Source of the DNA: an uncultured bacterium
GTDB taxonomy: Bacteria; Omnitrophota; Gorgyraeia; Ghiorseimicrobiales; Ghiorseimicrobiaceae
Reading direction: 5' to 3'
Length of the DNA: 64,000 nucleotides
NCBI GenBank assembly: GCA_913009335.1
Contig: CAJVXN010000001.1
Coordinates: 2,844 to 66,843, forward strand
In this document: positions 1 through 23,874 of the stretch, one piece after another
How positions within the stretch are numbered: the stretch's first letter is position 1
Layout of the letters: each line of letters opens with the position of its first letter
Made by a program: the position numbers and the translations under genes
The notes under the pieces: model-generated
What the model was told of the DNA's origin: nothing
Database searches by the model: none
What the model saw: only the letters and a program-made list of their open reading frames with translations

Positions 1-843
1 TACGGAGGATTATTTGAAATACTTGAGCCTGATGCCGGCTCAATACGCGGCACAGAAATTGTATGAGGCCCCACGCCAAATTTATCATCCAGATAACTAC
101 AATGCTTAAGCAAGGCTAAAGTCTCAAAACGATAATCATAAAGGCCAAAAAGTACGCCTATTCCGACATCATCAATGCCGGCTGCTTGCGCAACATCAAT
201 AGCGTACAACCTAGCGTCAAAATCACTCTTCGGACCGGAAGGATGCATAAATTTATACGTTCCCCCATGGTAGGTCTCCTGAAATATCTGATAAGTACCA
301 ATACCTGCTTTTTTTATCTTTTTAAACCCTGAATATTCTAGCGGCGCGACATTTATATTTACCCTGCGGATTTCACCTTTGGATTTATTAATACTATAGA
401 TTGTTTTAATTATATCTGCTAAATAATCAGCATTAATGTTATTATCCTGTCCTGCTACAACCAATAAACGCTTATGGCCTTCTGAAATTAAAAACTCGAC
501 ATCCTGTTTAATTTCGTCAGTGTCTATTAACTTACGCTTAAGCGTCTTGTTTTTATTTCTAAATCCGCAATAAAGACAGTTATTAGTACAAAAATTTGAG
601 ATATACAGGGGTGCAAAAAATACCAGGCGCCTTCCATAGATTAACTCTTTTATCTTACCTGCCGCACTAAAAAGCTCGGAGAGGTATTCATCCCGCGTAC
701 AGCTTAAAAGCATAGCTGCCTCACGGATATCTAACCCTTTTAGTGAGAAAGCCTTATTTATTATTTCTCTAAAAGAAACAGGAGAAAACTTCGTATTATG
801 AATTATTCCTAAGATCCCCTGCTCGTCAATAAATGATTTCATT
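1..843 (-). CDS. Radical SAM enzyme, ThiH/HydG (tyrosine lyase) family; N-terminal ~281 aa only, the C-terminus lies outside the window
   Basis: I translated the reverse complement myself. It gives ...RRLVFFAPLYISNFCTNNCLYCGFRNKNKTLKRK..., the CxxxCxYC radical-SAM motif in the FxPLYxSNxCxNxCxYCGF context typical of ThiH/HydG. The ATG is at 843-841 and is preceded by an AT-rich spacer. It sits immediately upstream of a HydE-like gene. Confidence 0.5.
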
Positions 844-850
844 ATAATTA

Positions 851-2149
851 TTATTGCGCTCCGATATCAGTAGGTGCCCGGCCCAGGCGATATAACAGCT
901 TAAGGCTACGGGCAATCTGGGTCTCTACTTTTATATTGCGACTCCTGCGATTAGGATAAATATCATAAAGCCTGCGAAAATCTATTGGGGTAACATTAAT
1001 CATCAATGAATTAGCCCCGGCACTTAGGGCTTTTTCTTTAGCGGGTTTAGCTAAAGTCTCGGTTGCTGTTGTAACCAATATACGCGACTTCTTATCTATT
1101 ATGCGGGCAAGAGAAATCACCCTTAGCATTTTAGCCAATCGTATTTTCTTTAAAGAAGCCAATGGAGTATCCAGATGGGGTATTAAAGGACCGAATGAAT
1201 ACATCTCAGGCTTAAGTTTTTTAGTTAACTTAATATTATTTAGAATATCGGTATCGGTCTCATTGGGAAGACCGACTAAAAATCCTGTTGCAACCAAATA
1301 GCCTATATTCTTTAATGATTTTATAAGTTTTAACCTGTCTTCTAATTTTTTTTCCGGCCGCAGCGCCGAGTATATTTTAGGATTTGCACTTTCAAATCTT
1401 AAAAGCGCGCCTCGCACTCCAGCGTCAAAAAATGCCTGATAATCAGATTCAGATCTCTCTCCTAAGCTTAAAAAAATCAATACCGCGTATTTCTGCCTTA
1501 TTTTTCTTATAATTTCTAATACGCGAGCTTTAGTATAATAGGCATCCTCTCCAGCCTGTAATACCAGCACCTTAAATCCGCGCGAATTTACCGCGTAATC
1601 TACTGCCTCTAAAATCTGGTTTAATTTTAAACGATAGCGCTTTAATTTTTTATTGCTCTTTCTAATACCGCAATAAAGACAATCCCTCACGCAATAATTA
1701 GATATTTCTATTATTCCATGAATACAGCATGAGTTATCTATATATTTATTCCGTATTCTATTGGCTAGTTGTTGCGAAAATTTTCCCTCATCGCTACTTA
1801 CTCCATTTAATAAATATAAATAATCAGTTACTGACAACCTGCGTTTTTCATCAATCTTCTTAATAATAGCATCATAAGGCTTAGAAAGCCTAAGCCCTGA
1901 ATAACTTTTATTAATAAGGCTTTCGTCTTGATTTTTTAATTTACTAAACAGAACCTTCCATGTTTTTAATATGCTCTGCGCTTGAAGATGCGGTATTTTG
2001 CGTATTGCCATGCCCGCCTGCACATAAACATAATCTCCGATATCAAAATCCAATAAATCCTTCAGGACTTTCCTTTTCTGGCCGAAATACTCAACAGTAG
2101 CAAATCTTTCTTCTATCTTTATAACCCTGGCGGGTATTGCGTAACACAC
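851..2149 (-). CDS. HydE-like radical SAM maturase with an N-terminal HypC/HupF-like domain (fusion protein, 432 aa)
   Basis: The N-terminus reads MCYAIPARVIKIE...VEYFGQKRKV...DIGDYVYVQAGMAI, the HypC signature (MCxAIP with Cys2; the position of the conserved His is a Gln). Residues ~90-432 match the HydE/BioB family: IIEISNYCVRDCLYCGIRKSNKKLKRYRL, VLVLQAGEDAYY, GPLIPHLDTPLA. This resembles Thermotoga HydE as I remember it. Confidence 0.6.
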   Translation of the reverse strand: MCYAIPARVIKIEERFATVEYFGQKRKVLKDLLDFDIGDYVYVQAGMAIRKIPHLQAQSILKTWKVLFSKLKNQDESLINKSYSGLRLSKPYDAIIKKIDEKRRLSVTDYLYLLNGVSSDEGKFSQQLANRIRNKYIDNSCCIHGIIEISNYCVRDCLYCGIRKSNKKLKRYRLKLNQILEAVDYAVNSRGFKVLVLQAGEDAYYTKARVLEIIRKIRQKYAVLIFLSLGERSESDYQAFFDAGVRGALLRFESANPKIYSALRPEKKLEDRLKLIKSLKNIGYLVATGFLVGLPNETDTDILNNIKLTKKLKPEMYSFGPLIPHLDTPLASLKKIRLAKMLRVISLARIIDKKSRILVTTATETLAKPAKEKALSAGANSLMINVTPIDFRRLYDIYPNRRSRNIKVETQIARSLKLLYRLGRAPTDIGAQ

Positions 2150-2338
2150 AAGAAAATTCCTCCTAATTTTCGCAGTCCCCAGCGATTAGATTTCGAAGAA
2201 ATCTGCAGGGGGATTAAATTATTCCAACAAGAAAATTCCTCCTAATTTTCGCAGTCCCCAGCGATTAGATTTCGAAGAAATCTGCAGGGGGATTAAATTA
2301 TTCCAACAAGAAAATTCCTCCTAATTTTCGCAGTCCCG
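2148..2338. repeat. 79-bp tandem direct repeat, ~2.4 copies, between the hydrogenase endopeptidase gene and the HypC-HydE gene
   Basis: The unit acaagaaaattcctcctaattttcgcagtccccagcgattagatttcgaagaaatctgcagggggattaaattattcca starts at 2148, 2227 and 2306. The first two copies are identical. The third diverges after ~32 nt. Confidence 0.9.
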
Positions 2339-2347
2339 ACGCGGGGT

Positions 2348-2800
2348 TTAATTTAGGATTTTTGTTATCTGATTAAGAACACCGGGAAAGCTTGCTTTAA
2401 CCTCGCTTGATAAATCATTGCAAAGAAGCAGATTATTCGGCTGGATACCAATAACATAAACTTTATTACGTATATCCAACATTTTATATAGTTTCAAAAA
2501 GTCCAACAATGAAAGACTGTGAGTCGATAATCTATTTTTAACAGTACCGGAATTTAAATCTTCTAAATAAAATCCTTTAACACTACCCGCGGGAGCACCA
2601 AAATCAGCTGCGTCAATTATAAATGTATAGAGATACTGCTTTATATAATTTAAAATATCTATACTCTGAGTGGAGAATTCAAAAAAATCAAAATCTTTAT
2701 TATTTAATTTATTTTTTAAATAAGCTAAGGCCTTAATCCCTACTCCGTCATCGCCCCGTAAAGTATTACCTACACCGGCAACCAAATACCGTTTAGACAA
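2348..2800 (-). CDS. [NiFe] hydrogenase maturation endopeptidase (HycI/HoxW/HybD family)
   Basis: LVAGVGNTLRGDDGVGIKA N-terminal motif. DAADFGAPAG and STHSLSL motifs. 150 aa. It overlaps the large-subunit gene by 8 nt. Confidence 0.8.
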   Translation of the reverse strand: MSKRYLVAGVGNTLRGDDGVGIKALAYLKNKLNNKDFDFFEFSTQSIDILNYIKQYLYTFIIDAADFGAPAGSVKGFYLEDLNSGTVKNRLSTHSLSLLDFLKLYKMLDIRNKVYVIGIQPNNLLLCNDLSSEVKASFPGVLNQITKILN

Positions 2801-4181
2801 ACTCTACCTCCAAGAGATGTGTCGAACAAGATATGCACGGGTCATATGCGCGGGCGAGCATCTCAAGATTTAGCTGTATTTCTTTTTTGGTTTTAGAAGG
2901 AAAAAGCTGAGGAACGAGTTCTTTCATGTCATTCTCTAAATTAAACAAGTTCTGTGCGGTAGGAATAATGCAGTTAGCGTGAGTAATTATACCGTTTTTA
3001 TCAACTGTATAATCATGATATAGGGTTCCGCGCGGTACCTCTACCGCACCCACCCCTCTGCCGGGCTTTACCTTAATTGGACGCTTCTTAACACTCGGCC
3101 AAGAAGTAACCAAACTTTCTTTTTCATTCAACCCCTTATCCAGTAATTCATCAATAATCTTAATCGACTCTTCCAGGCAATGCCTCCACTCAACAAGCTG
3201 TGCCACAGTATTTAAATAAGGATTATGAGATGGAGCAGAAAGACCTAAGCTTTTAGCTGCTTTTTTTGCCGCAGGATGAAGAAATTTATAGCTGTTATTA
3301 AAACGGGCAAGGGCTCCCACAGCATAAGACTCATCCTTAATAGAGGCAAATTTAGCCGTAGAGTAATCGCGAATAAATTCATTAACTACATTTAGATATT
3401 TCTGCGGATCAGTATTTTTCTTTGTTGAACTTACGTAAATATCACCGTCTAAATAAGCATAAGTTCCCAACTGTTTTAAAGAGACATACTGGGTGGGACG
3501 TATAAATTTCGGAAACTTTAATGTTTTGAATACCGCTACTGTCGCTTCGTAATCAACCCGAGAATCCGTCATCATTTTACGGAGTTTTAATAATGTCTTT
3601 TTAGCGGGCAGTTTGGTAAGCCCTCCGATGACAAAACTTATTGGGTGCACATGCCTACCGGCTAAAACATCACTGGTATAATCAGACATCTTCTTCATTC
3701 GTAAAGCAATTTCAATAACACTACGGTGAGTTTTAATCAAAGGGAATATACTATTTACGCCCAATAAATCAGGGGCAATTAAAATATAAAAATGTAATAC
3801 ATGACTGTCCATTGTCTCGGCATGCAATAACAATTGACGCAAGAGCTTAGTCTGCTTACTTACTTTAACACCCAGCGCAGCCTCTCCTGCCTTGATAGAA
3901 GCCAGGGTATGGCCGCAAGCGCAAATACCGCAAATACGACTGGTTATATGCTGCGCCTCATAAATAGAGCGGCCTACCAGCATAGACTCAAAAAATCGGG
4001 GCGATTCAATTACTTCAAAGCGACAATCAAGAAGCTTACCGTCCTTGACCTTAACCATAATATTGCCGTGTCCCTCTACGCGGGTTAAATATTTTACCTC
4101 TATATCCATATTACTCTTTGATTTCTTTAACATACTTTTTCTCCACAGCTGTATATAAAGTAAATTTATCAATAATCTCAT
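2793..4181 (-). CDS. [NiFe] hydrogenase large (alpha) subunit, group 3 (3b-like); the real start is probably the internal Met near 4109 (MDIEVKYLTRVEGHG)
   Basis: N-terminal RICGICACGHTLAS (RxCGxCxxxH) and C-terminal DPCISCSTHLLEVEFV (DPCxxCxxH plus a cleavable tail). Confidence 0.85.
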   Translation of the reverse strand: MRLLINLLYIQLWRKSMLKKSKSNMDIEVKYLTRVEGHGNIMVKVKDGKLLDCRFEVIESPRFFESMLVGRSIYEAQHITSRICGICACGHTLASIKAGEAALGVKVSKQTKLLRQLLLHAETMDSHVLHFYILIAPDLLGVNSIFPLIKTHRSVIEIALRMKKMSDYTSDVLAGRHVHPISFVIGGLTKLPAKKTLLKLRKMMTDSRVDYEATVAVFKTLKFPKFIRPTQYVSLKQLGTYAYLDGDIYVSSTKKNTDPQKYLNVVNEFIRDYSTAKFASIKDESYAVGALARFNNSYKFLHPAAKKAAKSLGLSAPSHNPYLNTVAQLVEWRHCLEESIKIIDELLDKGLNEKESLVTSWPSVKKRPIKVKPGRGVGAVEVPRGTLYHDYTVDKNGIITHANCIIPTAQNLFNLENDMKELVPQLFPSKTKKEIQLNLEMLARAYDPCISCSTHLLEVEFV

Positions 4182-4872
4182 TCACATCTAAACCGTAATT
4201 AGCAAGAATATCATTTTGCGCATCATTTGCGGGATTATCAATAAGCCCGCGGCAACCATAACATATATTGCCATTATTAACGCACCATGAGTTGCATCCG
4301 GCACGGGTAACAGGCCCCATGCAATTTTGTTCTTTTTGGTATAAACATACATTCTCGTTCATCTTGCATTCAACGCATACCGGATAATTCGGCACATCAT
4401 ACTTCTTTCCTAAAAGTAAACATTTAAATACCTCTGCCACTTCATTTGGATGCACAGGACATCCGTGTATATAATAATCAACTTTTATGACCTGATCAAT
4501 CGGCTTAACAGCTATGGTTTTAAACTTATCTGCCTTGTCTTTATATACACGCATTAAAGATATGTTTAAAGGCGTTCGGTTCTTTATCGCGTTTACCCCG
4601 CCGATAGTAGCGCAGGCACCAAGAGCTATAACAACCTTTGCCTGCTTTCGTATCCCGGTTATACGTTTAATATCATGCTCGGTTGAAATCGAACCCTCAA
4701 TAACAGCAATATCATAATCATCGCGAGGTTCACTCATTGCCTCGCGAAAATTTACTATCTCTATATGTTCAAGTATATCAAGAAGAACTGTATTAAGATT
4801 AACTATCTGCAGCTGACAACCTTCACAATCGGTAAAATCAAAAAAAGCGACTTTTGCCTTACTCTTTTTCAA
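4111..4872 (-). CDS. [NiFe] hydrogenase small (delta) subunit, group 3
   Basis: FDFTDCEGCQ N-terminal Cys pair. GACATIGG. C-terminal Cys cluster for a 4Fe-4S. 253 aa, typical of the short group-3 small subunit. Confidence 0.8.
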   Translation of the reverse strand: MKKSKAKVAFFDFTDCEGCQLQIVNLNTVLLDILEHIEIVNFREAMSEPRDDYDIAVIEGSISTEHDIKRITGIRKQAKVVIALGACATIGGVNAIKNRTPLNISLMRVYKDKADKFKTIAVKPIDQVIKVDYYIHGCPVHPNEVAEVFKCLLLGKKYDVPNYPVCVECKMNENVCLYQKEQNCMGPVTRAGCNSWCVNNGNICYGCRGLIDNPANDAQNDILANYGLDVNEIIDKFTLYTAVEKKYVKEIKE

Positions 4873-5720
4873 AATGCTTCCTCCATATTCCTGATATCAC
4901 TATATTTAAATACCGGTCCATTTTGACAAACATAGACACCGTTTATCTGACAATGACCGCATTTACCCAGGCCGCATTTCATTCTACGCTCAAGAGAAAC
5001 AATTATCTGTCTATCGGGAATTTCTTTCTTGAGTAATTCTTTGATTACGAACTTATACATCAAAGGAGGCCCAACTACTACCGCATACGTACGCATAGGA
5101 TTTAAATTAACGCCGGGAATAAGCTCAGTTATTAAACCAATATTCCCCTGCCAGTCAGGATCAGCTCTATCTACGGTACATCTAAACAAAATATCTAAGT
5201 GCCTGCCCCACTGGCCAATCTCATTATTAAATAACATATCCTTGGGACTCCTGCATCCTAATAATATATTTACAGCTCCGAAATCTTTACGATGATACAT
5301 GATATAGCGTATCAGACCTCGTAAAGGGACAATACCTAATCCTCCGGCAACAATCAAAATATCATTGCCAAAAAAATTCTCTACAGGAAAACCCTTGCCA
5401 AAAGGACCGCGCACACCAACTACATCCCCTTTTTTAAGATTATGCAAAGCGCTGGTTAACGTGCCTACATTTCTTACGGTTATCTCAAAATACCCCTTAT
5501 CAGTAGGTGAGGAGCATATTGAAATAGGCGCCTCCCCCCTACCGAACATCGAAATCTCGGCAAATTGTCCGGGCATATAATTAAAATCTTTATTATTCTT
5601 TTTCAATCTTAGGCGAAAAAGTTTTTCCAGATTTGTATACTGCTTAACCATGATAATCTCGGCCGGCATTGATCTATAAGGTGAATAGGGTAGTATTTTT
5701 TTAAATTCCGATTGAAACAT
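4869..5720 (-). CDS. Hydrogenase gamma subunit: FAD/NAD(P)-binding oxidoreductase with C-terminal 2Fe-2S (sulfhydrogenase HydG / PyrK-like)
   Basis: Ferredoxin-reductase-type fold motifs (GGLGIVPL) and C-terminal CGLGKCGHCQ. 283 aa. Confidence 0.7.
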   Translation of the reverse strand: MFQSEFKKILPYSPYRSMPAEIIMVKQYTNLEKLFRLRLKKNNKDFNYMPGQFAEISMFGRGEAPISICSSPTDKGYFEITVRNVGTLTSALHNLKKGDVVGVRGPFGKGFPVENFFGNDILIVAGGLGIVPLRGLIRYIMYHRKDFGAVNILLGCRSPKDMLFNNEIGQWGRHLDILFRCTVDRADPDWQGNIGLITELIPGVNLNPMRTYAVVVGPPLMYKFVIKELLKKEIPDRQIIVSLERRMKCGLGKCGHCQINGVYVCQNGPVFKYSDIRNMEEAF

Positions 5721-6753
5721 TTCTATGCTCTCTGATTAGGCTATTTACGGTCTCAGTCAAATTTATTTCTGCCATACAAGTACGACTGCACCTGCCGCAG
5801 CCAGTACAAAAATAACGGCTAAATTTATCTATAGGATACTTAAATTTACGATAATAGCGGTGTCTTTGACGGGCGGATCGACCCGGCCTAAAATCTTCCC
5901 CTCCGGCAACCTTGGCAAAATCATCCATCTGACATGAGTTCCAAAGCCGATAACGCAAACCATCATTAAGATTAAGGCTTACTTCATCCAAAACATCAAA
6001 ACAGTAACATGTCGGACATACAGCCGTACAATTCCCACACCCAACACACCTTTTACCTACATCTTTCCATATCTCACTATCATACAACTTAGAAAATACA
6101 GCATAAAGTTCAGTAAGACGCCCGATAAACTCTTCCTTAAATATTTTCTCTTTTTTCTTGCGTACTGCATCCAATAAATACCTATCGGCGGAAATGCATT
6201 TCTTTATATAGCTACGCTGCCGTAAGATGCTCTCGGCTTTTGCGGAATTAATATGGATTATATATTTATTCCCGACATCCGTAAGCATGATGTCGTATCC
6301 CCCCTTAGGCACGTGATTCCCCATAGATACACAATTTGCATATTTATCACAAGGAGTAAGACATTCAATGCCGACAGTAGTCATGCGGTCCTTACGATTG
6401 ATATAATTGGCATCTAAAGGCTCCTGGCGAAACACTACATCCATACACTGAATACCTGCTATATCACAAGTATGCACGCCAAATAATACGAATTCTTCAA
6501 ATTTACGTATTGCTTTTGCGGTCTTAAATGGTTTTATTTTAAACTTTAATAGTCGTTCCTTTTGTGGAAAATAATATTTTTTAGGCGGAAGTATTGTAGA
6601 AATATAATTTAGATCGAGCTCCTTAACGTCTTTAATCGGCCGAAATACATGCCTGCCATCTTTTTTCTTGGGCCCATAGAGCTTACCGTGATCTTCTAAA
6701 GATTCAAGCCACCGATTAAAATCTTTCTTACTTATCTTTGCGTATCTTTCCAT
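5701..6753 (-). CDS. Hydrogenase beta subunit, Fe-S protein (sulfhydrogenase HydB-like)
   Basis: CVGCGNCTAVCPTCYC and CTGCGRCSRTCM 4Fe-4S motifs. 350 aa. It is the first structural gene of a beta-gamma-delta-alpha operon. Confidence 0.7.
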   Translation of the reverse strand: MERYAKISKKDFNRWLESLEDHGKLYGPKKKDGRHVFRPIKDVKELDLNYISTILPPKKYYFPQKERLLKFKIKPFKTAKAIRKFEEFVLFGVHTCDIAGIQCMDVVFRQEPLDANYINRKDRMTTVGIECLTPCDKYANCVSMGNHVPKGGYDIMLTDVGNKYIIHINSAKAESILRQRSYIKKCISADRYLLDAVRKKKEKIFKEEFIGRLTELYAVFSKLYDSEIWKDVGKRCVGCGNCTAVCPTCYCFDVLDEVSLNLNDGLRYRLWNSCQMDDFAKVAGGEDFRPGRSARQRHRYYRKFKYPIDKFSRYFCTGCGRCSRTCMAEINLTETVNSLIREHRNVSIGI

Positions 6754-6762
6754 TTTTTTAAA

Positions 6763-7008
6763 TTAGCTTAGTTCATAGCTGTCAAAGCTAAGAGGTGCGC
6801 CGATTTCTGTTTCTTTTATTTCAAGCTTCACATCTTTCCAAGGCGTATTTTTTATAAACTGATAAAAATGCTCTTTAAAACGATCTCTCTTGATGCCGCC
6901 AAACAAAGAAAGTGCTACAACTATTTTTGAAACCCTGGATACATCATCTAAAGCTAGCTGCTTAGCAACTTTGTTCAACAAATCTTTTATTAAATTACTT
7001 TCATGCAT
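6763..7008 (-). CDS. HypA-like protein (N-terminal Ni-binding domain only; the Zn-finger domain is absent)
   Basis: It starts MHESNLIKDLLNKVAK..., matching the HypA/HybF MHE(L/M)S N-terminus. It is only 81 aa and has no Cys at all. Confidence 0.45.
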   Translation of the reverse strand: MHESNLIKDLLNKVAKQLALDDVSRVSKIVVALSLFGGIKRDRFKEHFYQFIKNTPWKDVKLEIKETEIGAPLSFDSYELS

Positions 7009-7070
7009 ATAATACCTATTTAATTTTAAGATTTAATTTTACCACAAATTAATTGTTTTGCAATAGTTAT

Positions 7071-7088
7071 TTGTGAAAATTATCACAA
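7071..7088. promoter_or_regulatory. Putative Rex operator upstream of the hydrogenase operon
   Basis: TTGTGAAAATTATCACAA against the Rex consensus TTGTGAAnnnnTTCACAA (one mismatch). It sits 63-80 nt upstream of the hypA-like start in an AT-rich promoter region. Rex is encoded at 34748-35383. Confidence 0.55.
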
Positions 7089-7135
7089 TCATTAATTTTA
7101 AAGCTTTTTTTCACTCACTCGCCAAGAAAACTCCC

Positions 7136-7720
7136 TTACTCTTCCCCCTTAAATTTTTCATAATCCTTTTCAGTATTTATGTTTGCAAATGACAGTCCCT
7201 GCGGGTCAAAATGCGATACCTCATCGTGCTTAATTTTTTTAATTTTTACCCCTGTGAGGAAATCCGTCAATTTAAAATTATTTTTTTCGAACTGACGCTT
7301 AATAGAACTAATGCAACTTTTTGAATAAAAGGCATAAAGAGGCTCAAGCTTCCGCCTAAATTCCGGCACAACCACATCATAATCTTTTATATAATTCCGC
7401 ATGTATTCTATTAATAAAGTATTTACATGCGGCATATCTGAGGCGATTAGAAAATTATACTGACCATCTGAATTTATTAATGCAGAATATATTCCCCCTA
7501 GGGGCCCTTTATCCAACGCAATATCTGAAAATAACCGCACGCCTAATGCTTTGTAGCGTTCTAAAGAATTAGTAATAATAATAAGATCATCGAATACAGA
7601 CTTTAATTCTCTTATCTGTCTTTCAATAATAGTCTCACCATTTAAATTTAGCAATCCTTTATGGGGAACAAACCTAGTCCCTTTCCCCCCGGCAAGTATA
7701 GCTGCGGTCACCTTCATCAC
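7136..7720 (-). CDS. mobA: Molybdenum cofactor guanylyltransferase
   Basis: AAILAGGKGTRF NTP-transferase motif. 194 aa. It lies inside a Moco cluster. Confidence 0.75.
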   Translation of the reverse strand: MMKVTAAILAGGKGTRFVPHKGLLNLNGETIIERQIRELKSVFDDLIIITNSLERYKALGVRLFSDIALDKGPLGGIYSALINSDGQYNFLIASDMPHVNTLLIEYMRNYIKDYDVVVPEFRRKLEPLYAFYSKSCISSIKRQFEKNNFKLTDFLTGVKIKKIKHDEVSHFDPQGLSFANINTEKDYEKFKGEE

Positions 7721-7870
7721 ACTAAATCCTTTATAATAATTAATAATTGTTACAGGTAATATTTAAGGTGTTACAGCTCCTGACAAAATTCATCTTATCC
7801 ATAGAGATAGGCCATCCTAATACCTTTACTCAGCAGGGTAGGCCTTACCCGTTCTGTTTAGGGAAGGGCC

Positions 7871-9148
7871 TTAAGGGATGGGCCTTATAAGCTGGACCTT
7901 AATCGTATCGCCTTTTTTAATCTTTGTAACATTCTCTGGTATAACTGCTATCCCATCTGCTAAAACAAGAGATTTCAATATTCCTGATCCTTGAGGACCG
8001 GTTAGTCGAGCTAAAATTTTACCATTATTAGTCTCTAATTTTACTCTTAAAAAATAGCATAAATCTTTTTTCTTCTTAATTGTCTCCTGCGAGACCGCAT
8101 AAACTTCACAATGCCGGAAGTTTTTTACTCCGCAGGACCACATTATTGCCGGACGCACAAATTCTTCAAAACAAATAAGGCTGGATACGGGATTCCCCGG
8201 CATACCAAATATTAAAACTTTCCCTAACACAGCAAATAATAAAGGTTTTCCAGGGCGCATCTTAATACACCAAAATTTAATATCGGCGCCTAATTCTATT
8301 AAGACATCTTTAACGAAATCGTAATCACCAACCGACACCCCTCCGGAAATAAGCAGCATATCGAGGTTTAAACTTATCGCCTTTTTAATCTTAGCTCGAA
8401 TTTTTAATCTTTTATCGCGAACAATACCTAAATTAACAGGCATGCTCCCACAATCTAGAACCGCGCTATAAAGACTATAGCCGTTAGAATTACGTATTTT
8501 ACCGATAGCCAAGGGCTTTCCCGGATCAACTAATTCATCGCCTGTTGAAAGAATACCTACTACTAATTTCCTATAAACGCATACCCTGGTCAAGCCTAAG
8601 GCAGCAAACATTCCTACATCCGATGGCCCAATTTTTTTACCTTTCCTTAAAACCGTATCTTTCTTTTTTATATCCTCTCCTGCATATCTTACGTTTTCCC
8701 CTTTTTTGGGCTGATGTAAAATTTTAACATGCTGCACGTCCATCTCCATAGTCTCTTCTACTTTCACTACAGAATCAGCTCCTAGAGGAAGTGGCGCTCC
8801 CGTCATTATCCGGATTGCCTGATTAAATTTTATTTTTTTCTTAGATACGACTCCTGCGGGAAGATCATCGATTATTTCAAATATCTTAGGATTGCTTTTT
8901 GATGCGCCTTTTGCGTTTCTTGAATTAATTGCAAAACCATCCATAGCTGAATTATTAAATGGAGGAATATTGATTTTTGACTTAATATCATTTGCAAGAA
9001 TTCTACCGAAAGAAGGTAAAATAGCTACCTTCTCTGATTTTACCGGGTTCATATTGGTACGTATAATACTCATTGCCTTTTTAACATCTATCATTTTATA
9101 TTTTATTCTCCATATCGTTTTGCAGTTTCTCAATTTTAACAATCCCAA
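7871..9148 (-). CDS. moeA: Molybdopterin molybdotransferase (start is probably the internal Met near 9094)
   Basis: GADSVVKVEE, ISGGVSVGDYDFVKD and GMPGNPVS MoeA motifs. Confidence 0.8.
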   Translation of the reverse strand: MGLLKLRNCKTIWRIKYKMIDVKKAMSIIRTNMNPVKSEKVAILPSFGRILANDIKSKINIPPFNNSAMDGFAINSRNAKGASKSNPKIFEIIDDLPAGVVSKKKIKFNQAIRIMTGAPLPLGADSVVKVEETMEMDVQHVKILHQPKKGENVRYAGEDIKKKDTVLRKGKKIGPSDVGMFAALGLTRVCVYRKLVVGILSTGDELVDPGKPLAIGKIRNSNGYSLYSAVLDCGSMPVNLGIVRDKRLKIRAKIKKAISLNLDMLLISGGVSVGDYDFVKDVLIELGADIKFWCIKMRPGKPLLFAVLGKVLIFGMPGNPVSSLICFEEFVRPAIMWSCGVKNFRHCEVYAVSQETIKKKKDLCYFLRVKLETNNGKILARLTGPQGSGILKSLVLADGIAVIPENVTKIKKGDTIKVQLIRPIP

Positions 9149-10280
9149 ATATAAATAAATAAGAAAAAATCAAACCTATCGCAAAACCGATTGCTATAGA
9201 TTTTAATGCAAGAGTTGTAGCTGCGGTTAAAAACATTACAAAAAAATCTGTTTTACTTACCATGTCTCGACTCACCACTGCTAATTCAAAACCTGCAAAC
9301 AATAAAAGTATCCCTAAGACACTTACTGGATATGCTGAGAATATTTTTAAACAGGCGGCCCCGAATAATAAACCTACAAATATCTTAACAATACCAAGCA
9401 AAAATACACTTCCCCCCGTTCTAGCCCCAAATCTATATTGTGCCGCTAACCCTCCTGCGCCATGGCACATGGGCATTGCTCCGAACCAACATCCGATTAA
9501 ATTCATAAGCCCAACACTAATAGCAATCCCCCTGGGATTAACCCCTTTCTTAGGAAAAAGATCCCATGATAAAGCACAAACAGCAATTACCGAGTTTAAC
9601 AAAGTTAAAGGAATCTGTGCAATCGATGCCCTCATTACCCCTACAATAAAGTCGCTTTTCCCGGGAATTATAAATCTTGGAACAGCAAACCCGATATTCA
9701 ATTCCTTAAAGATGTGGGGAGATTTTAAAAAAACCAGTATAATACCTAAACCACATACCACCAGCGCTCCCGGAAAACGCTTACTGAATAAAAACACAAG
9801 AACCAATAACATGGATATTATACCGATAGAGATACTATCATAACCAAAAAAGGTATTAGTATTAGCTACCATCTGTATCCCTGTAATAACTAATTTTAAT
9901 CCCAAACCTAACTGCAGACCCCTTACTACGCTCTTAGGTATCATCTTGTTAAGGTGTGAAATTATATTTGTTATTCCCAGTAAAAACACTACAAAACCGG
10001 TAACTAGCCCAGCAGCGAATATTTGATTAGGAGATAATCTTTCTGCGATGGCAATAATTGCAATTGCCTTCATCGGTTGTACAGCTATAGGTATGCCAAA
10101 TAACATAGCACTCAAAACACTAAACAATCCAGAAAATATTAAAATATTTGCCGGGCTAAGACCGCAGACTGTAACCAACCCCACAAATAGAGGAATAAAT
10201 ATACCCATATCACCCAAGGAACCTGCAATCTCGGATATATTAAATTTAAATGATTTTATATTATTATGAATGAAATTCAT
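9096..10280 (-). CDS. MOT1-family (SulP-related, no STAS domain) anion permease, putative molybdate transporter
   Basis: About 11 TM helices. SLGDMGIFIPLFVGL resembles the GDLGTxIP signature of MOT1 molybdate transporters. The gene is embedded between moeA and mogA. Confidence 0.5.
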   Translation of the reverse strand: MNFIHNNIKSFKFNISEIAGSLGDMGIFIPLFVGLVTVCGLSPANILIFSGLFSVLSAMLFGIPIAVQPMKAIAIIAIAERLSPNQIFAAGLVTGFVVFLLGITNIISHLNKMIPKSVVRGLQLGLGLKLVITGIQMVANTNTFFGYDSISIGIISMLLVLVFLFSKRFPGALVVCGLGIILVFLKSPHIFKELNIGFAVPRFIIPGKSDFIVGVMRASIAQIPLTLLNSVIAVCALSWDLFPKKGVNPRGIAISVGLMNLIGCWFGAMPMCHGAGGLAAQYRFGARTGGSVFLLGIVKIFVGLLFGAACLKIFSAYPVSVLGILLLFAGFELAVVSRDMVSKTDFFVMFLTAATTLALKSIAIGFAIGLIFSYLFIFGIVKIEKLQNDMENKI

Positions 10281-10298
10281 TCTTTGACTAAAAACTAT

Positions 10299-10811
10299 TT
10301 AATGTTCTCTTCCAAGAATCATATCTAAGCCATGGGGTAATTCTTCTATAATCGCCTCCAAAGACTCCTTCGCGCCCTTAGAACTACCGGGAAGATTAAT
10401 TATAAGAGTATTCTCTCGTAATCCAGCAACACCCCTTGAAAGCATTGCCCGTTTAGTAATATGCAGACAGCTAACTCTCATTGCTTCCGATATCCCCGGA
10501 ACCTGTTTATGAACAATTTCCAAAGTTGCCTCGGGAGTAGAATCCCTTGGCCCCAACCCCGTTCCCCCGGTGGTAAATACAACATCTAACTTAAGGTTAT
10601 CAGAATAATGAATAAGTTTTTCTTTAATCATGTCAGGCTCATCAGGCACTATTTCATATATTGCAAGTTCATAATTTTTTGACTTTAAAATTTCTAGAAT
10701 AATCTTACCGCTCTTATCCTCCCTCTCCCCTTTAGAGCATTTATCACTTATAGTTAAAACTCCCGCTTTATACATTTGATTCCCCTTTTTTCTGAGTAGC
10801 AACAATCTCAT
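10299..10811 (-). CDS. mogA: Molybdenum cofactor biosynthesis protein MogA/MoaB
   Basis: TTGGTGLGPRDSTPEA motif. 170 aa. Confidence 0.8.
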   Translation of the reverse strand: MRLLLLRKKGNQMYKAGVLTISDKCSKGEREDKSGKIILEILKSKNYELAIYEIVPDEPDMIKEKLIHYSDNLKLDVVFTTGGTGLGPRDSTPEATLEIVHKQVPGISEAMRVSCLHITKRAMLSRGVAGLRENTLIINLPGSSKGAKESLEAIIEELPHGLDMILGREH

Positions 10812-11229
10812 CTCCTGGCCTTATGACTCCTGCCTTTAAAACAGTCGCAAAAATACCTTCAGTAGGCATAACACAGTCTCCCGCCTGATAATAAATAGCA
10901 CATCTTGTGTGACACTCTTTACCTATCTGGCTTATTGCTAAAACAGCATCTTTACCTATCTTTACTCTATCTCCGATATTAAGCGTTAGAAGATCAATGT
11001 CTTTTGTTGTAATATTTTCAGCAAAATCACCAGGACCTACATCAAGCCCTTTTTTTCTTATCTTTTCTATAGACTCAATAGCTAAAAAACTTACCTCTCG
11101 GCCACTCCCGGCATGAGCGTCATTTAAAACCCCAAAGTTTTCGCGCAATTCTACCATTGGCACGTTTTTCTTTTTAACGCCTTTACTTTTTGAAATTGAT
11201 GTTGCGATTATTTTTCCTTTTATCATCAT
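10768..11229 (-). CDS. MOSC-domain protein
   Basis: About 150 aa with a beta-barrel-type sequence and a conserved Cys (GKECHTRC). Moco neighbourhood. Confidence 0.5.
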   Translation of the reverse strand: MMIKGKIIATSISKSKGVKKKNVPMVELRENFGVLNDAHAGSGREVSFLAIESIEKIRKKGLDVGPGDFAENITTKDIDLLTLNIGDRVKIGKDAVLAISQIGKECHTRCAIYYQAGDCVMPTEGIFATVLKAGVIRPGDEIVATQKKGESNV

Positions 11230-11282
11230 GTTATATTTGCTTATATCTTATCTTCTATCCATATGGATAAGTCTACTACAAT

Positions 11283-11645
11283 TTATTTATTAAGACCTCC
11301 CAGAATATCATCAACCCAAGATAGTGACGCCATGGCTCTGGGCCAGCCAATAGTAGTAATAGCTAAAATCGCAGCATGGTAGATTTCTTCATCGCCTATT
11401 CCCGCTTTTTTACATTTACGGACATGAGAATGCACCCCGCCCTCAAGACCTGCCCCAATAGCAATGCCCAGCTTAACCAACCTCTGCGCGCGCTCATCAA
11501 TAGCGCCGACTCCTCTGACAGACTCTCCTAACTTTGTATAACTTTCCCAAACTTGCGGATATTTCTTAATGACTTTTTGTAAAAATTCAGGTAATTCTTT
11601 ATTCATCTCTGCCTCCTCAATGAGTACACGATTTACGGAATGCAA
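11283..11645 (-). CDS. Carboxymuconolactone decarboxylase / AhpD-like family protein
   Basis: 120 aa. A helical AhpD-like core (GGVHSHVRKCKKAGIGDEEIYHAAIL). Confidence 0.5.
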   Translation of the reverse strand: MHSVNRVLIEEAEMNKELPEFLQKVIKKYPQVWESYTKLGESVRGVGAIDERAQRLVKLGIAIGAGLEGGVHSHVRKCKKAGIGDEEIYHAAILAITTIGWPRAMASLSWVDDILGGLNK

Positions 11646-11739
11646 ATCGTAAGTACGAATTGATCCCGCCGAATATTTAAAAATTATCGTAGAAAATTTT
11701 CAAATAGATTATGAGGCGGGGTAACATTCAATTGCCTTA

Positions 11740-12666
11740 CTATCCCCCAACACTAGACATATATACCCCTGATTCCTCCCAGCTAGTATAATCAATAGCA
11801 TCCTTTGTAGACATTAAATTTTTTATCTTGGCCTTAATAAAGCTATCTTCTACACCGCTTCTTAAGAAATCTCTCAAAGATACACCCTTAGGCTGATAAA
11901 GACATAATTTTAACTCCCCTATCGCAGTTAACCTTAAACGTGAGCACATTCGGCAATTTAAGCTATGTGTCTTTATAAACCCGATTATTCCATCACTATA
12001 TCGATAATATTCTGCTGGCCCTAAATTCCGGTATCCTATCCATTCAAGGCCAAATTTACTATGACAAATATTTCTAACTTTCTCAATCGGCACAAAAAAA
12101 CTTTCCTCCCATAAAGGGGTAACCTTCATAAATTCAATAAATCTTAAAATCAAATTATTCTCCTGGGCAAAATTAACAAAATCAACTATCTCATCATCAT
12201 TAACCTGCTTTCTTACTACTACATTTAGCTTTACAGTATTAAAAAGCTTTCGAGCGCGATTAATACCATCTAGAACCTGACCAAGAAGATCTTTTCCTGT
12301 TATTGACTTAAACCGCTCTTGTCTAAGAGTATCCAGGCTTATATTCATGCTTTTAAGTCCTGCATTTTTTAAATCTTTTACATAAGAAGAAAGAAGGATT
12401 CCGTTAGTGGTAAGGCAGATTTCTTCTAAACCATCTATTTGGCTAATATTTTTCACTAAATCCACTATACCTTTTCTTACTAAAGGCTCCCCTCCGGTAA
12501 GACGTATTTTTTTTATACCTAAATCAGCGAAGATTTTTAAAAACCGCAATATCTCTTCAAAACTAAGTATCGCCTCATGCGGCTGAGTAACAATTCCTTC
12601 CTTAGGTATGCAGTATCCGCATCTTAAATTGCAACGGTCAGTAATAGAAAGTCTTAAATATCCCAT
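11740..12666 (-). CDS. moaA: GTP 3',8-cyclase (radical SAM)
   Basis: LRLSITDRCNLRCGYCIP. C-terminal Cys motif for the second cluster. 308 aa. Confidence 0.85.
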   Translation of the reverse strand: MGYLRLSITDRCNLRCGYCIPKEGIVTQPHEAILSFEEILRFLKIFADLGIKKIRLTGGEPLVRKGIVDLVKNISQIDGLEEICLTTNGILLSSYVKDLKNAGLKSMNISLDTLRQERFKSITGKDLLGQVLDGINRARKLFNTVKLNVVVRKQVNDDEIVDFVNFAQENNLILRFIEFMKVTPLWEESFFVPIEKVRNICHSKFGLEWIGYRNLGPAEYYRYSDGIIGFIKTHSLNCRMCSRLRLTAIGELKLCLYQPKGVSLRDFLRSGVEDSFIKAKIKNLMSTKDAIDYTSWEESGVYMSSVGG

Positions 12667-13368
12667 TTATACTCGTTTTTTATAAGTAAATTTAGAAAAA
12701 ATTACTCCCATCTCATACAATAAAATCAGGGGCAGGGCCATTAATACTTGAGTAACAACATCCGGAGGAGTCATAAGTGCTGCAGCGATAAAAACCAACA
12801 CGATCGCTTCTCTCCTTCTTGCTGCTAAAGTAGCTGGGGTAACTATCCCAACTTTAGTTAAAAAAATAAGGGCTATAGGTAACTGAAACACGATAGCAAA
12901 CGCAAAAGATAGGCTTGCTACAAAAGAGATATAATTACTTATGGAAATCATGGGAGTCAAAAAATCAGTCTCAAAACCCAAAAGAAACTTTACCCCCAAA
13001 GGTGTAATAACAGAATATCCGAATATCAACCCTGATGCAAAAAGAAGAAAAGAAACTGGACCAAAAAAGTAAATAAGTCGTCGCTCATCAATCATCAACC
13101 CCGAAGAGATAAATTTCCAAACCTGATAAAGTATAAAAGGCGACGAAATAATTAATCCTACAAACAATGCGATCTTTATATTGGCAATGAATGCTTCTTG
13201 AGGAGCAATAAATACAAGCTTACCAGCGGGTTTTATCAAAGAAGGCAAAATTTTATCACTAAAGCTATAGATAGCTATCGAACAAATCACCAAAAAAATT
13301 AAGGACCTAATAATACAACTCCTTAATTCATCTAAATGCTCGACTAAAGATAGTTTTTCATCTTTCAT
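12667..13368 (-). CDS. tatC: Twin-arginine translocase subunit TatC
   Basis: Six-TM protein. HLDELRSCIIRSL N-terminus typical of TatC. Confidence 0.8.
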   Translation of the reverse strand: MKDEKLSLVEHLDELRSCIIRSLIFLVICSIAIYSFSDKILPSLIKPAGKLVFIAPQEAFIANIKIALFVGLIISSPFILYQVWKFISSGLMIDERRLIYFFGPVSFLLFASGLIFGYSVITPLGVKFLLGFETDFLTPMISISNYISFVASLSFAFAIVFQLPIALIFLTKVGIVTPATLAARRREAIVLVFIAAALMTPPDVVTQVLMALPLILLYEMGVIFSKFTYKKRV

Positions 13369-13403
13369 CTATAATAAAATTAAATACTTGCAACAAAATA
13401 TAA

Positions 13404-13586
13404 TTATTTCTTTTTTTCTTCGTTGGTTGCGTCTTTAATATCATCTTTAATTTCTTTAGCCCCCTTCTTAAACTCCTTAATCGAGCGACCCAAAGCACGG
13501 GCAATCTCAGGAAGACGCGTTGCTCCAAATAATACCAGGACTATCAACAAAATTACAATAAGCTCTCCCATCCCAAACCGAAACAT
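13404..13586 (-). CDS. tatA: Twin-arginine translocase subunit TatA/E
   Basis: MFRFGMGELIVILLIVLVLFGATRLPEIARALG: a TM helix, an FG hinge and an amphipathic helix. Confidence 0.8.
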   Translation of the reverse strand: MFRFGMGELIVILLIVLVLFGATRLPEIARALGRSIKEFKKGAKEIKDDIKDATNEEKKK

Positions 13587-13696
13587 AATACCCTCCTATG
13601 CTAAAATTACAGTGTTTTTATAATAATTAAACCATTACATAATAAAATTCAAAATAAATAGTTTGTATCAGGAATAAAAAAGAGAGGCAAAAACTA

Positions 13697-14314
13697 TTAA
13701 TAACCAGAATTACACCTACTTGTAAGATTTCTCTGGTCTTCTTCAATAAATGATCTTGTAAGTCGGGCTAATTTTCTATAAAAGGCCTGATGAGCACCTG
13801 CTTCTACGCTAGCAGTAAACTTATTCACCCATCTACCAAGGTGCATACCCAAAAAAGATGCCTGCTTCTGACAATAACCAAAAGCAGTATTAGAATCCTT
13901 ATTTTTCATCGATTCTGCCTCTCTAAAAATAAGCAAATACATGAATTCTAATTCTACGGCAATATGGTCAGGTGCCTCCCTTACAGTAATATCTAAGCCT
14001 TCTTTCCTGTACCACTTTTTTACATCCATAGTTGAGTCACCCATAATTCTTCTTGCGCCCTCAAGATAAACCGACCCATAAGGGGGTGCGAGTAACTTGT
14101 ATGGCCCGAGGAAAAGTTTTGAGTAATCAATTTTTAACGATACGATGTCATCTACCTCTGGAATATTCTTGATAACTTCCAGAGTCAAGCCATTTTGTGA
14201 TTCTTTAAATGCTTTTAATGCTCCGATCAACTTCTCATCCGGGGCGTAATAGCAATCTGACAATAACTTATATAAATCAGACCTCACATTGTCACAAACT
14301 AAATCATTCTTCAT
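13697..14314 (-). CDS. TorD/DmsD/NarJ-family redox-enzyme maturation chaperone
   Basis: KLFLGPYKLLAPPYGSVY and EAPDHIAVELEFMYLL motifs. It lies directly downstream of the Mo-enzyme catalytic subunit. Confidence 0.7.
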   Translation of the reverse strand: MKNDLVCDNVRSDLYKLLSDCYYAPDEKLIGALKAFKESQNGLTLEVIKNIPEVDDIVSLKIDYSKLFLGPYKLLAPPYGSVYLEGARRIMGDSTMDVKKWYRKEGLDITVREAPDHIAVELEFMYLLIFREAESMKNKDSNTAFGYCQKQASFLGMHLGRWVNKFTASVEAGAHQAFYRKLARLTRSFIEEDQRNLTSRCNSGY

Positions 14315-16896: not shown

Positions 16897-16983
16897 ATCT
16901 CTTCTCCCCTCCCCTTAAAAACTCTTTCGATATATTACATCTTAAGTGATACCAGAAAACTTAGAAAAAATACAATACTTTCT

Positions 16984-17877
16984 CTATAGACTCCCTACAG
17001 ATTTTTTATATACAGCAGGATTATAATTTCTTACGTAAAATACCTTGGGTTCTGTCCCCAGGTGTTCCTTAAGCCGCATTGGGCGATATTTTCCAATAAC
17101 CTGATTTACTTTGCTATTAGGATCATTTAAGTCTCCGAATATCCTTGCTTCGGCTGGACATCTCATTACACAATAGGGTAACTTTCCTTTCTTTACTCTA
17201 TGGTCGCAAAAAGTGCATTTCTCTACAATACCTTTACGCCTTAAACCAGAACCCTTCTTATTTTGTTCTCTATCCGGATTATAATAAGGAACCACCCTCC
17301 CCTTCACATCCTTACTAACATCCTCTGGCGAATCAGTACAACCTTTTATCAAAGCTTTTCTATCTCTCCAAAACCGATGAGTTTCTTCTTCGTTAAAATA
17401 AATTACCCCCTCATACGGACAAGCCTCCATACATGCTAAGCATCCTATGCAAAGCTCTGGCTCTTGGGCAACTATATCACCATCTGCTTTATGCCTAGCT
17501 GATGTTGGACACACTTCCACGCAGGGCGGCTTTTCACAATGATTGCATAATGTCGGTATATAATCATATCTAACATTGGGGAATTTACCTGCTGTAGTAC
17601 TTTTCTTGTAAGACCAAGTCGCGCCCTCCTGTAAATTGTTTTCATTTTTGCAAGAAATTATACAACCCCCGCATCCGGTGCATCTTTGAAGATCCAATAC
17701 CATTGCCAAGCGTTTCCCAGATAAGGGTTTTTTATCGGCAAAAACTTCTTTTGCGCTCATTGCTCCCGCTACCGATACAGCTACGGCCCCGCTCATCTTT
17801 AAAAAATCTCTTCGCGAAACTTTCTTTTTTTGCAGGATATTGCCTGCAGCATTCTTTTTATTTTTTATCTTAAGCAT
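16984..17877 (-). CDS. Tat-exported 4x[4Fe-4S] ferredoxin-type electron-transfer (B) subunit
   Basis: Tat motif VSRRDFLKMSGAVAVS. Four CxxCxxCxxxCP-type clusters. 297 aa. Confidence 0.75.
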   Translation of the reverse strand: MLKIKNKKNAAGNILQKKKVSRRDFLKMSGAVAVSVAGAMSAKEVFADKKPLSGKRLAMVLDLQRCTGCGGCIISCKNENNLQEGATWSYKKSTTAGKFPNVRYDYIPTLCNHCEKPPCVEVCPTSARHKADGDIVAQEPELCIGCLACMEACPYEGVIYFNEEETHRFWRDRKALIKGCTDSPEDVSKDVKGRVVPYYNPDREQNKKGSGLRRKGIVEKCTFCDHRVKKGKLPYCVMRCPAEARIFGDLNDPNSKVNQVIGKYRPMRLKEHLGTEPKVFYVRNYNPAVYKKSVGSL

Positions 17878-17969
17878 ACCTCCCCCTATCGTTATAAACC
17901 AATAAGCAGCCTATTGAAAACCAGGCTACTTATTGGCCATTAATTGATATCTTGCGATTATATTAAACA

Positions 17970-19244: not shown

Positions 19245-19289
19245 TCACCTCCCTTTTTTACGTTTCTAATTTTTCCGTTATGGATATAT

Positions 19290-19325
19290 AAAAAAAAGAC
19301 ACTTATGCATTGATAAGTGTCTTAA
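19290..19325 (-). terminator. Rho-independent terminator after the octaheme cytochrome gene
   Basis: An 11-bp perfect stem, aagacacttat/ataagtgtctt, with a 6-nt loop. On the minus strand it is followed by an 8-nt U-run. Confidence 0.7.
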
Positions 19326-19434
19326 TGCGCTTTATCCTAGAAAGATATTTTTCTGTCATATCAATTATTTGCTTCGTGAAAGATATCACTAAATTTCTAT
19401 GCGTTTATTTTACCACTCTACTCTATGCTGTCAA

Positions 19435-23391: not shown

Positions 23392-23409
23392 GAATACACC
23401 TTTTAGTTT

Positions 23410-23868: not shown

Positions 23869-23874
23869 AAGAGG

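Follow-up and report, generated by a model that had tools for sequence, protein, structure and literature searches.

Can the enzymes that make the carbon monoxide and cyanide ligands of [FeFe] hydrogenases also serve the maturation of a [NiFe] hydrogenase? This question is raised by a stretch of 64,000 nt, here called the window, from the Omnitrophota contig CAJVXN010000001.1 (assembly GCA_913009335.1). In it, a putative group-3b-type [NiFe] hydrogenase is encoded together with a protein that joins the carrier HypC to a HydE-type radical S-adenosylmethionine (SAM) enzyme and with a predicted HydG. HypC holds Fe(CN)2CO at its Cys2 and passes it on to the apo large subunit (2025 [NiFe] cofactor review). 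From tyrosine HydG produces CO and CN, which it builds into Fe(II)(CO)2(CN)(cysteinate), and HydE adenosylates the cysteine sulfur of this product and cleaves the cysteine off to give Fe(I)S(CO)2(CN). The original prediction, made from the letters of the window, held that the anaerobic source of the CO ligand is unresolved and proposed a hybrid route in which ligands made by radical-SAM enzymes are handed to HypC. The 2025 review of [NiFe] cofactor biosynthesis agrees on the first point, calling the anaerobic CO source the most pressing open question; it holds that six Hyp proteins are required and does not mention HydG or radical-SAM enzymes. On the second point, the comparative evidence presented here favours a hybrid route. 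The idea is strengthened because HydG is itself fused to HypC-HydE in some [NiFe] operons, because the fusion accompanies two classes of [NiFe] hydrogenase, and because no HypD, HypE or HypF was found in the neighbourhoods searched. On balance we think that the HypC-HydE fusion and HydG form a hybrid module that matures the [NiFe] hydrogenase whose genes lie directly upstream.

A HypC domain is joined to a predicted HydE domain

The 432-codon open reading frame (ORF) of the fusion (Table 1) begins with MCYAIP and keeps Cys2 of HypC, as the original prediction had stated; its start codon is GTG and not the ATG given there. Pfam assigned residues 1-64 to HupF_HypC (PF01455, 62.3 bits, cut-off 28.5) and also found Radical_SAM and BATS domains, and the NCBIfam HypC model TIGR00074 gave 50.3 bits (cut-off 48). 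In the PDB the N-terminus matched HypC from T. kodakarensis (2z1c). Residues 95-404 scored 275 bits with the HydE equivalog model TIGR03956 (cut-off 254.6), compared with 128 bits for PylB and 95 for BioB, and a phmmer search of the PDB with the radical-SAM part gave 225 bits for T. maritima HydE, 83 for PylB and 40 for BioB.

An AlphaFold2 model built on an alignment of 102 relatives (pLDDT 93.6, pTM 0.92) indicates that the fusion is one rigid two-domain body. The best Foldseek matches of this model were T. maritima HydE entries, with TM-scores of 0.93-0.96 and root-mean-square deviations of 1.5-2.8 Å. The HypC domain is predicted to form five strands in residues 5-52 followed by a helix in residues 54-79, with pLDDT of 80-93 over this block, consistent with an oligonucleotide/oligosaccharide-binding (OB) fold. 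By family score and modelled fold the radical-SAM domain is HydE, running in frame from HypC as had been proposed; the family scores, the PDB scores and the fold comparison ruled out BioB, PylB or CofG.

The fusion recurs across bacteria and archaea

We scanned one genome per prokaryotic species (GTDB species representatives) and found that at least 518 of these genomes encode a relative of the fusion. Each of the best 120 database relatives (45-98% identical) combines HypC with a radical-SAM part, and this architecture recurs in more than 120 protein clusters at 45-87% identity. Bacterial carriers include Omnitrophota, Patescibacteria, Legionellales/Coxiellaceae-like Gammaproteobacteria, Planctomycetota (anammox lineages among them), Margulisiibacteriota, Brevinematales, Nitrospiraceae and others; the DPANN archaeal carriers include Micrarchaeota, Aenigmatarchaeota, Woesearchaeota, Nanoarchaeota and Altiarchaeota. 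The closest relative in the species scan, from an Omnitrophota genome, is 66% identical, and a 98%-identical relative is present among the database proteins.

A perfect 79-bp tandem repeat lies immediately upstream of the fusion gene, and a look-up of the exact protein sequence found no record, both of which would suit an assembly or annotation artefact that joined separate hypC and hydE genes. The same continuous frame, with its invariant MCYAIP start, occurs in the 518 species genomes from many independent assemblies, and the 98%-identical protein exists. The probability of such an artefact is therefore negligible. Recurrence among the 120 relatives and in these independent assemblies likewise rules out a frameshift or stop-loss joining two genes.

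The neighbouring gene encodes a predicted HydG, and mechanistic residues are conserved

None of Met1, Cys2, Ile5, Pro6, Gln44 and the cysteines of the CX3CX2C motif varies among 102 family members. When the protein is aligned with E. coli HypC, Gln44 falls on the position of His51, the replacement that had been noticed from the sequence of the window. All 102 aligned relatives have Gln there, and divergent proteins that carry HydG as a third domain have Ala or Thr; the position is never His. In the HydE domain, E148, M316 and M383 are invariant and align with E58, M224 and M291 of T. maritima HydE in the PDB-search alignment, and K309 of that enzyme maps to a conserved Arg/Lys position near residue 400 of the fusion. 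E58 and K309 have been implicated in the radical relay of T. maritima HydE, and M224 and M291 in binding Fe(I)(CO)2(CN)S intermediates (PMC11826987). The cysteines of the T. maritima auxiliary cluster are absent from the fusion.

The gene next to the fusion had been described as an upstream member of the ThiH/HydG family. Its HydG identity held, but it lies downstream of the fusion, because every gene of the region is on the minus strand. The fragment in the window scored 297.9 bits with the HydG model TIGR03955 and 206 bits with ThiH; it falls under the full-length cut-off of 312 because only a truncated gene is visible. It contains the radical-SAM motif CTNNCLYC and, within LLKHCSY, a histidine that aligns with His265 of Thermoanaerobacter italicus HydG (TiHydG; the numbering is one off relative to the PDB sequence). 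In TiHydG this histidine is the sole protein ligand of the fifth ('dangler') iron. The nearest relative on a longer contig (L001) has the same operon, a fusion that is 65% identical and a complete HydG of 456 aa, which matches T. italicus HydG over its full length with 525 bits. The full-length orthologues from L001 and L029 reached 549 and 544 bits, respectively, with TIGR03955. The C-terminal region that would hold the auxiliary-cluster motif CX2CX22C lies beyond the window end, and essentially all full-length HydG partners, that of L001 included, contain this motif (CTACYRxxRTGxxFMxxAKxGxIxxxC). All 40 non-redundant partners have the histidine aligned with His265.

Judged by these scores and motifs, the neighbouring gene is hydG and not thiH. 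A ThiH in a thiamine context, named beforehand as a finding under which the original prediction would fall, was ruled out: HydG scores are higher, the orthologues have the C-terminal cluster motif and the surroundings contain no thiamine genes. The one true ThiH encountered (477 bits) is the product of an unrelated gene in L069. One HydG (P0227) has an internal duplication of about 220 residues that is probably an assembly error. Because mechanistic residues and cluster motifs are kept, both the HydE domain and the HydG partners look catalytically competent and of the classical type.

The fusion is genetically linked to [NiFe] hydrogenases

We examined neighbourhoods of 10 kb on either side of the fusion gene. 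ORFs were called and clustered in the first 85 loci and the window, recurrent clusters were annotated, and feature counts cover 80 species-level loci. A [NiFe] large subunit was encoded in 32 of these and the maturation endopeptidase HycI in 28, with one or the other in 34. HydG was present in 44 loci, in 36 of them as the adjacent gene, and 65 loci contained at least one of HydG, the large subunit and HycI. HypA was found in 13, HypB in five (all gammaproteobacterial) and the [FeFe] hydrogenase HydA in three. The linked [NiFe] hydrogenases belong to two unrelated classes, group 3b and the membrane-bound Mbh/Mrp-type group 4, whose clusters include NuoC-like, NuoH-like, MbhD/E and antiporter subunits. 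HydG is placed between HycI and the fusion in L025 and L061. In DPANN loci the fusion-HydG pair is mostly alone, without adjacent hydrogenase genes. The neighbourhood counts of PMC12727194 were not taken as a baseline because they were seeded on Hyp genes too.

Searches with tblastn and E. coli queries found no HypD, HypE or HypF in approximately 1.46 Mb comprising 89 loci and the window. The same approach, in a run over 1.38 Mb, did detect HypA, HypB and HycI, and HypC matched in 50 loci. Since no ORF for a separate HypC turned up, we attribute these HypC matches to the HypC domain of the fusion. HydF was not found in the neighbourhoods either, using an approximate query sequence, which makes this search weaker, and a search for the motif CxHx(40-60)HCxxC.

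HydG has been fused to HypC-HydE in [NiFe] operons

In Nitrospiraceae locus L058 all three domains, HypC, HydE and HydG, occur in one polypeptide of 906 aa (HydG 607 bits, HydE 348 bits). A search with this protein returned at least 17 protein clusters of such triple fusions, 880-946 aa long, in at least four similarity groups: Nitrospirota, Omnitrophota, Legionellales-like and a divergent group of 881 aa. The nearest relatives of each of the first three groups are two-domain fusions and not members of another triple group, and the divergent group is at about equal distance (41-44%) to two-domain fusions and to the other triple groups. By this pattern of similarity, HydG was probably joined to HypC-HydE on several separate occasions. 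The best 120 HydG homologues contained no Legionellales-like names; a Legionellales-type triple fusion turned up later (L091) and is 67% identical to a gammaproteobacterial two-domain fusion.

Every triple-fusion context that we examined is [NiFe] (Table 1; proteins of 881-921 aa at these loci). One is in a closed Omnitrophota genome of 1,516,639 bp (CP070797.1). Searches of the extra triple-fusion loci, L091 not among them, found no HypD, HypE, HypF, HydF or HydA.

Relation to [FeFe] hydrogenase maturation

Several observations weigh against a hybrid route. In L053, L066 and L076 (Omnitrophota-type and Firestonebacteria) the fusion is flanked on one side by a 3b operon and on the other by an [FeFe] cluster that encodes HydA of 542-592 aa, a NuoE-like protein, a response regulator and, in two of the loci, Rex. 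A longer type of HydG (504-512 aa) stands beside the [FeFe] cluster in L053 and L066, and in L066 it is not beside the fusion. In these three loci the HydE domain may also serve, or serve only, [FeFe] maturation, and one maturase set may serve both hydrogenases. The invariant M316 and M383, whose counterparts are believed to position two Fe(I) units that dimerise, fit classical HydE better than an enzyme with a mononuclear product. The ligands also do not match: the HydG product has two CO and one CN, whereas the [NiFe] site has one CO and two CN. Finally, 36 of the 80 loci, including most of the Legionellales-like ones, lack HydG within 10 kb.

This last count would be explained if the radical-SAM domain had diverged, for instance to make only the CO ligand or to modify the large subunit, with HydG not its supplier. 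The HydE score of the window protein just above its cut-off and the missing auxiliary-cluster cysteines are in line with such divergence. Against it stand the adjacency of HydG and its repeated fusion to HypC-HydE, the retention of the mechanistic HydE residues and the presence of fused HydG in a Legionellales-type relative. We consider a diverged enzyme very improbable.

Another explanation is that two independent maturases were fused, with HypC working in an ordinary HypCDEF system, HydE and HydG working with HydF on an [FeFe] enzyme encoded elsewhere, and the fusion providing co-regulation. The invariance of classical HydE residues, the dimerisation methionines among them, agrees with this explanation, as do the HydA genes near the fusion in three loci, the L066 HydG that adjoins HydA instead of the fusion, and the NuoE/NuoF-type genes of the window, which are typical of [FeFe] hydrogenase loci. 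However, HypD, HypE, HypF and HydF were never found in the approximately 1.46 Mb searched, whereas hypC, hypD and hypE are contiguous in E. coli. HydA is near the fusion in three loci as opposed to [NiFe] genes in 34, HydG has been fused to HypC-HydE repeatedly inside [NiFe] operons, and His51 of HypC is replaced throughout the family. The module is also common in DPANN, yet at most eight of 130 genomes of archaea that encode [FeFe] hydrogenases have any HydE, HydF or HydG. We regard two independent maturases as unlikely, though more deserving of attention than the other alternatives.

The HypC domain could instead replace HydF as the scaffold or carrier of a di-iron precursor, so that the module matures [FeFe] hydrogenases in organisms without HydF, such as DPANN. 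No HydF was found in any neighbourhood searched, the DPANN pairs of fusion and HydG are usually alone, and most archaeal genomes with [FeFe] hydrogenases lack canonical maturases, for which an alternative pathway has been postulated in the literature. This idea conflicts with the hydrogenase neighbours, which are [NiFe] in 34 loci and [FeFe] in three, with the flanking HycI and HypA, both specific to [NiFe] maturation, and with the same scarcity of HydE, HydF or HydG among [FeFe]-encoding archaea. Replacement of HydF thus seems to us a poor prospect, and a hybrid module for [NiFe] hydrogenases is the reading that we prefer.

Organisation of the operon and its surroundings

Every gene of the hydrogenase region is on the minus strand and transcription runs from high to low coordinates. 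Read from 5' to 3', the order is a HypA-like gene, the beta, gamma, delta and alpha subunits, HycI, a 198-nt spacer, the fusion and HydG. The gene identities thus agree with the endopeptidase, the four subunits and the HypA-like gene named in the original prediction; these genes lie upstream of the fusion and not downstream, and HypA is a short form without cysteines. Apart from the spacer the genes overlap or are separated by a few bases, and no terminator-like site was found on the minus strand of the region. Because of this spacing and the lack of such a site, the set from HypA to HydG looks like one operon.

Table 1. Positions of the predicted features in the window and of triple fusions in related loci
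Sequence	Feature	Position	Strand	Details
Window	HydG, N-terminal 280 aa	1..842	-	Starts 8 nt past fusion stop codon; runs off window end
Window	HypC-HydE fusion ORF, 432 aa	851..2149	-	GTG start 8 nt after AGGAGG; N-terminus MCYAIPARV
Window	HydE domain, aa 95-432 + stop codon	851..1867	-	CX3CX2C motif is CVRDCLYC
Window	HypC domain, aa 1-75	1925..2149	-	MCYAIP with Cys2; Gln44 at His51 position
Window	79-bp tandem repeat, 2.4 copies, in HycI-fusion spacer	2148..2337	.	Tandem Repeats Finder: 100% matches, score 380
Window	HycI/HyaD-type maturation endopeptidase	2348..2800	-	PF01750 51 bits; TIGR00072 112.8 bits (cut-off 47.45)
Window	[NiFe] alpha (large) subunit, group-3b type	2793..4181	-	NiFeSe_Hases 131.8 bits; ShyA/HydA sulfhydrogenase alpha 244-270 bits
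Window	Delta (small) subunit	4111..4872	-	Oxidored_q6 103 bits; sulfhydrogenase HydD/ShyD 177-186 bits
Window	Gamma subunit, FAD/NAD-binding and [2Fe-2S] domain	4869..5720	-	NAD_binding_1, FAD_binding_6, DHODB_Fe-S_bind; PRK08345 hydrogenase gamma 289 bits
Window	Beta subunit, AsrA/ShyB-like, iron-sulfur	5701..6753	-	Fer4_22 104 bits; best NCBIfam match sulfhydrogenase ShyB 246 bits, below equivalog cut-off
Window	Short HypA-like protein, first operon gene	6763..7008	-	81 aa, starts MHE; Pfam HypA 34.1 bits, profile positions 1-69 of 112
L058	Triple fusion	10001-12721		Directly after 3b genes and HycI
L087	Triple fusion	10001-12766		After HycI and short HypA, at end of Mbh/Mrp-type cluster; genome CP070797.1
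L088, L090	Triple fusions	10001-12646		Between 3b gamma and delta genes
L091	Triple fusion	2171-4879		After HycI and DsbD_2-like membrane protein (Legionellales-type arrangement)

The hydrogenase is of group-3b type according to its best NCBIfam matches, which for all four subunits are Pyrococcus-type sulfhydrogenase (group 3b) models at 177-289 bits, below the equivalog cut-offs of 395-880. The translated alpha subunit contains both cysteine motifs that bind nickel and iron (L1 and L2), RICGICACGH and a C-terminal DPCISCSTH that is followed by a short extension; its true start may lie downstream of the listed one. The HypA-like protein has zero cysteines and hence no zinc domain. Such short HypA proteins (80-84 aa), which keep the nickel-binding MHE start at the N-terminus and have no zinc-finger cysteines, adjoin the fusion in at least 12 related loci from many lineages, for example L048, L051, L053, L061, L062 and L069, and further L075, L085, L087, L088 and L090.

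Every copy of the 79-bp repeat in the spacer includes the ribosome-binding site AGGAGG and the opening bases of the fusion gene. The copies create decoy starts, after which comes a mini-ORF of three codons. In L001 the orthologous spacer measures only 27 bp, and the repeat of the window reflects either recent duplication or an artefact of the assembly. A regulatory RNA was rejected: there was no Rfam match and folding was no better than for shuffled sequence (z = -0.27).

The original prediction that the window contains no [FeFe] catalytic subunit proved correct, as neither an H-cluster domain nor HydF, HypD, HypE or HypF was found in its 64 kb. A gene set typical of bifurcating or sensory [FeFe]-hydrogenase loci is present on the minus strand at 22834-30130. 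It comprises genes for a NuoE-like protein with a Fer2 domain, a NuoF-like protein, CBS plus HATPase, DRTGG, PHP and HATPase_c proteins. The last of the set encodes a Fer2_4/4Fe-4S protein of 185 aa whose match to a HydA is confined to the N-terminal 204 residues and which has no H-cluster domain. Directly upstream of the operon, also on the minus strand (7136-20853), are genes for MobA, MoeA, a MOT1-type molybdate transporter, a MoaB-like protein, MOSC, MoaA and TatC, as well as a Tat-dependent molybdopterin oxidoreductase, its iron-sulfur subunit and a NarJ-type chaperone. Next to these molybdenum-cofactor and oxidoreductase genes come those of a putative porin and a multi-haem cytochrome.

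The minus strand holds nearly all ORFs of at least 110 aa in the window, every 2-kb bin has negative GC skew and the cumulative skew falls steadily. This co-orientation and skew fit a long stretch of one replichore. No tRNA genes were found at positions 1-64000. A second tandem repeat of 43 bp (2.1 copies, 93% identity) lies at 21835-21926, at the junction between genes for a polyprenyl synthetase and a UbiA-type prenyltransferase.

In the neighbourhoods of other fusions we observed a membrane protein of 237-239 aa with a weak match to DsbD_2 and no NCBIfam family. Its gene lies between HycI and the fusion in nine Legionellales-like loci (L030, L031, L033, L036, L043, L055, L073, L084 and L091) and upstream of the beta-subunit gene in Brevinematales loci L048 and L069. 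The protein could transport a metal or act as an additional maturation factor. Conserved Micrarchaeota neighbours whose size alone had raised the suspicion that they are Hyp proteins turned out to be an H+-pyrophosphatase, a CBS protein, ScpA, SepF, Cdc48 and an Lrp-type regulator, and the conserved Planctomycetota neighbours considered as hydrogenase-related are ribosomal proteins.

Discussion

The domains of the fusion, the conservation of its catalytic residues and its genetic linkage to [NiFe] hydrogenases are observed in many genomes. From these we infer a route in which HydG would cleave tyrosine and build an Fe-CO/CN complex on its auxiliary cluster. The HydE domain would take over this complex and remove the cysteine that holds the iron by radical-SAM chemistry. 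The Fe-CO/CN unit would then move within one polypeptide to the Cys2 thiolate of the HypC domain, which would load it into the apo large subunit. The short HypA would aid nickel insertion, and HycI would trim the C-terminal tail. Support for a hybrid route, the general idea of the original prediction, comes from the triple fusions, the two [NiFe] groups and the failure to find HypD, HypE and HypF nearby.

Two further suggestions go beyond the module itself. We tentatively suggest, at somewhat less than even odds, that, through the module, its carriers can dispense with HypD, HypE and HypF. We give about the same guarded credence to the proposal that Omnitrophota, DPANN, Patescibacteria, Legionellales-like bacteria and others could form Fe(CN)2CO without HypD, HypE and HypF, all three ligands coming from tyrosine via HydG, followed by release through HydE and carriage by HypC.

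The module has likenesses to both established systems. With the canonical system, in which HypC works with HypD, HypE and HypF (hypABCDE and hypF in E. coli), it shares the HypC domain (an OB fold by prediction here), the N-terminal Cys2, linkage to a [NiFe] large subunit, a HycI-type protease and HypA (in some lineages HypB), and presumably Fe(CN)2CO as the end product. It differs in that HypC is joined to a radical-SAM enzyme, that His51 is replaced by Gln, Ala or Thr, and that HypD, HypE and HypF were not found in the neighbourhoods examined; the cyanide would come from tyrosine and not from carbamoyl phosphate. With the HydG-HydE-HydF system of [FeFe] hydrogenases it shares HydG and HydE at equivalog level, their cluster motifs and mechanistic residues, and the arrangement of the two as an adjacent gene pair. 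Unlike that system, it has no HydF that we found nearby, its target genes are [NiFe], and its HydE carries HypC at the N-terminus and lacks the auxiliary-cluster cysteines of T. maritima.

The HydEF protein of Chlamydomonas consists of fused maturases of one pathway. Two HydE-HydG fusions without HypC that we observed (P0262 and P0263, 833-853 aa; the auxiliary-cluster cysteines of classical HydE are present in at least one) likewise place consecutive enzymes of one cofactor pathway in one polypeptide. In contrast to HydEF, the HypC-HydE fusion crosses two systems regarded as separate, the Hyp system of [NiFe] and the Hyd system of [FeFe] hydrogenases. HypX, the aerobic CO-ligand synthase, is also an accessory route for a diatomic ligand to HypC-bound iron outside the core Hyp set. 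It differs in its unrelated fold and chemistry (formyl-tetrahydrofolate to formyl-CoA to CO), works with HypCD and does so under oxic conditions.

In the literature covered, which leaves out subscription journals, the only mention of the fusion that we found is one sentence of a 2026 preprint on Ca. [quoted passage not shown] The architecture and the operon type, with HypA, HypB, 3b-type subunits, protease and fusion, are those of the Legionellales-like loci described here; the preprint discusses no distribution, partner, link to HydG or function. A paper on Ace Lake Omnitrophota contains nothing on maturation. In this literature the fusion module is essentially unstudied, and it is real, conserved and poorly explained by current models.

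A module that wires the enzymes making CO and CN for [FeFe] hydrogenases to HypC is a concrete candidate for a second maturation route. Annotation pipelines label its proteins 'HydE', 'HydG', 'biotin synthase' or '2-iminoacetate synthase', and because of these names HydE and HydG will mislead when they are used as markers of [FeFe] capacity in metagenomes. If the proposed route is true, the minimal maturation set would be the HypC-HydE fusion, HydG, the short HypA and HycI, a much smaller gene set for heterologous production of [NiFe] hydrogenases. It would also provide an evolutionary link between the two hydrogenase maturation systems and would explain how organisms with very small genomes afford [NiFe] hydrogenases.

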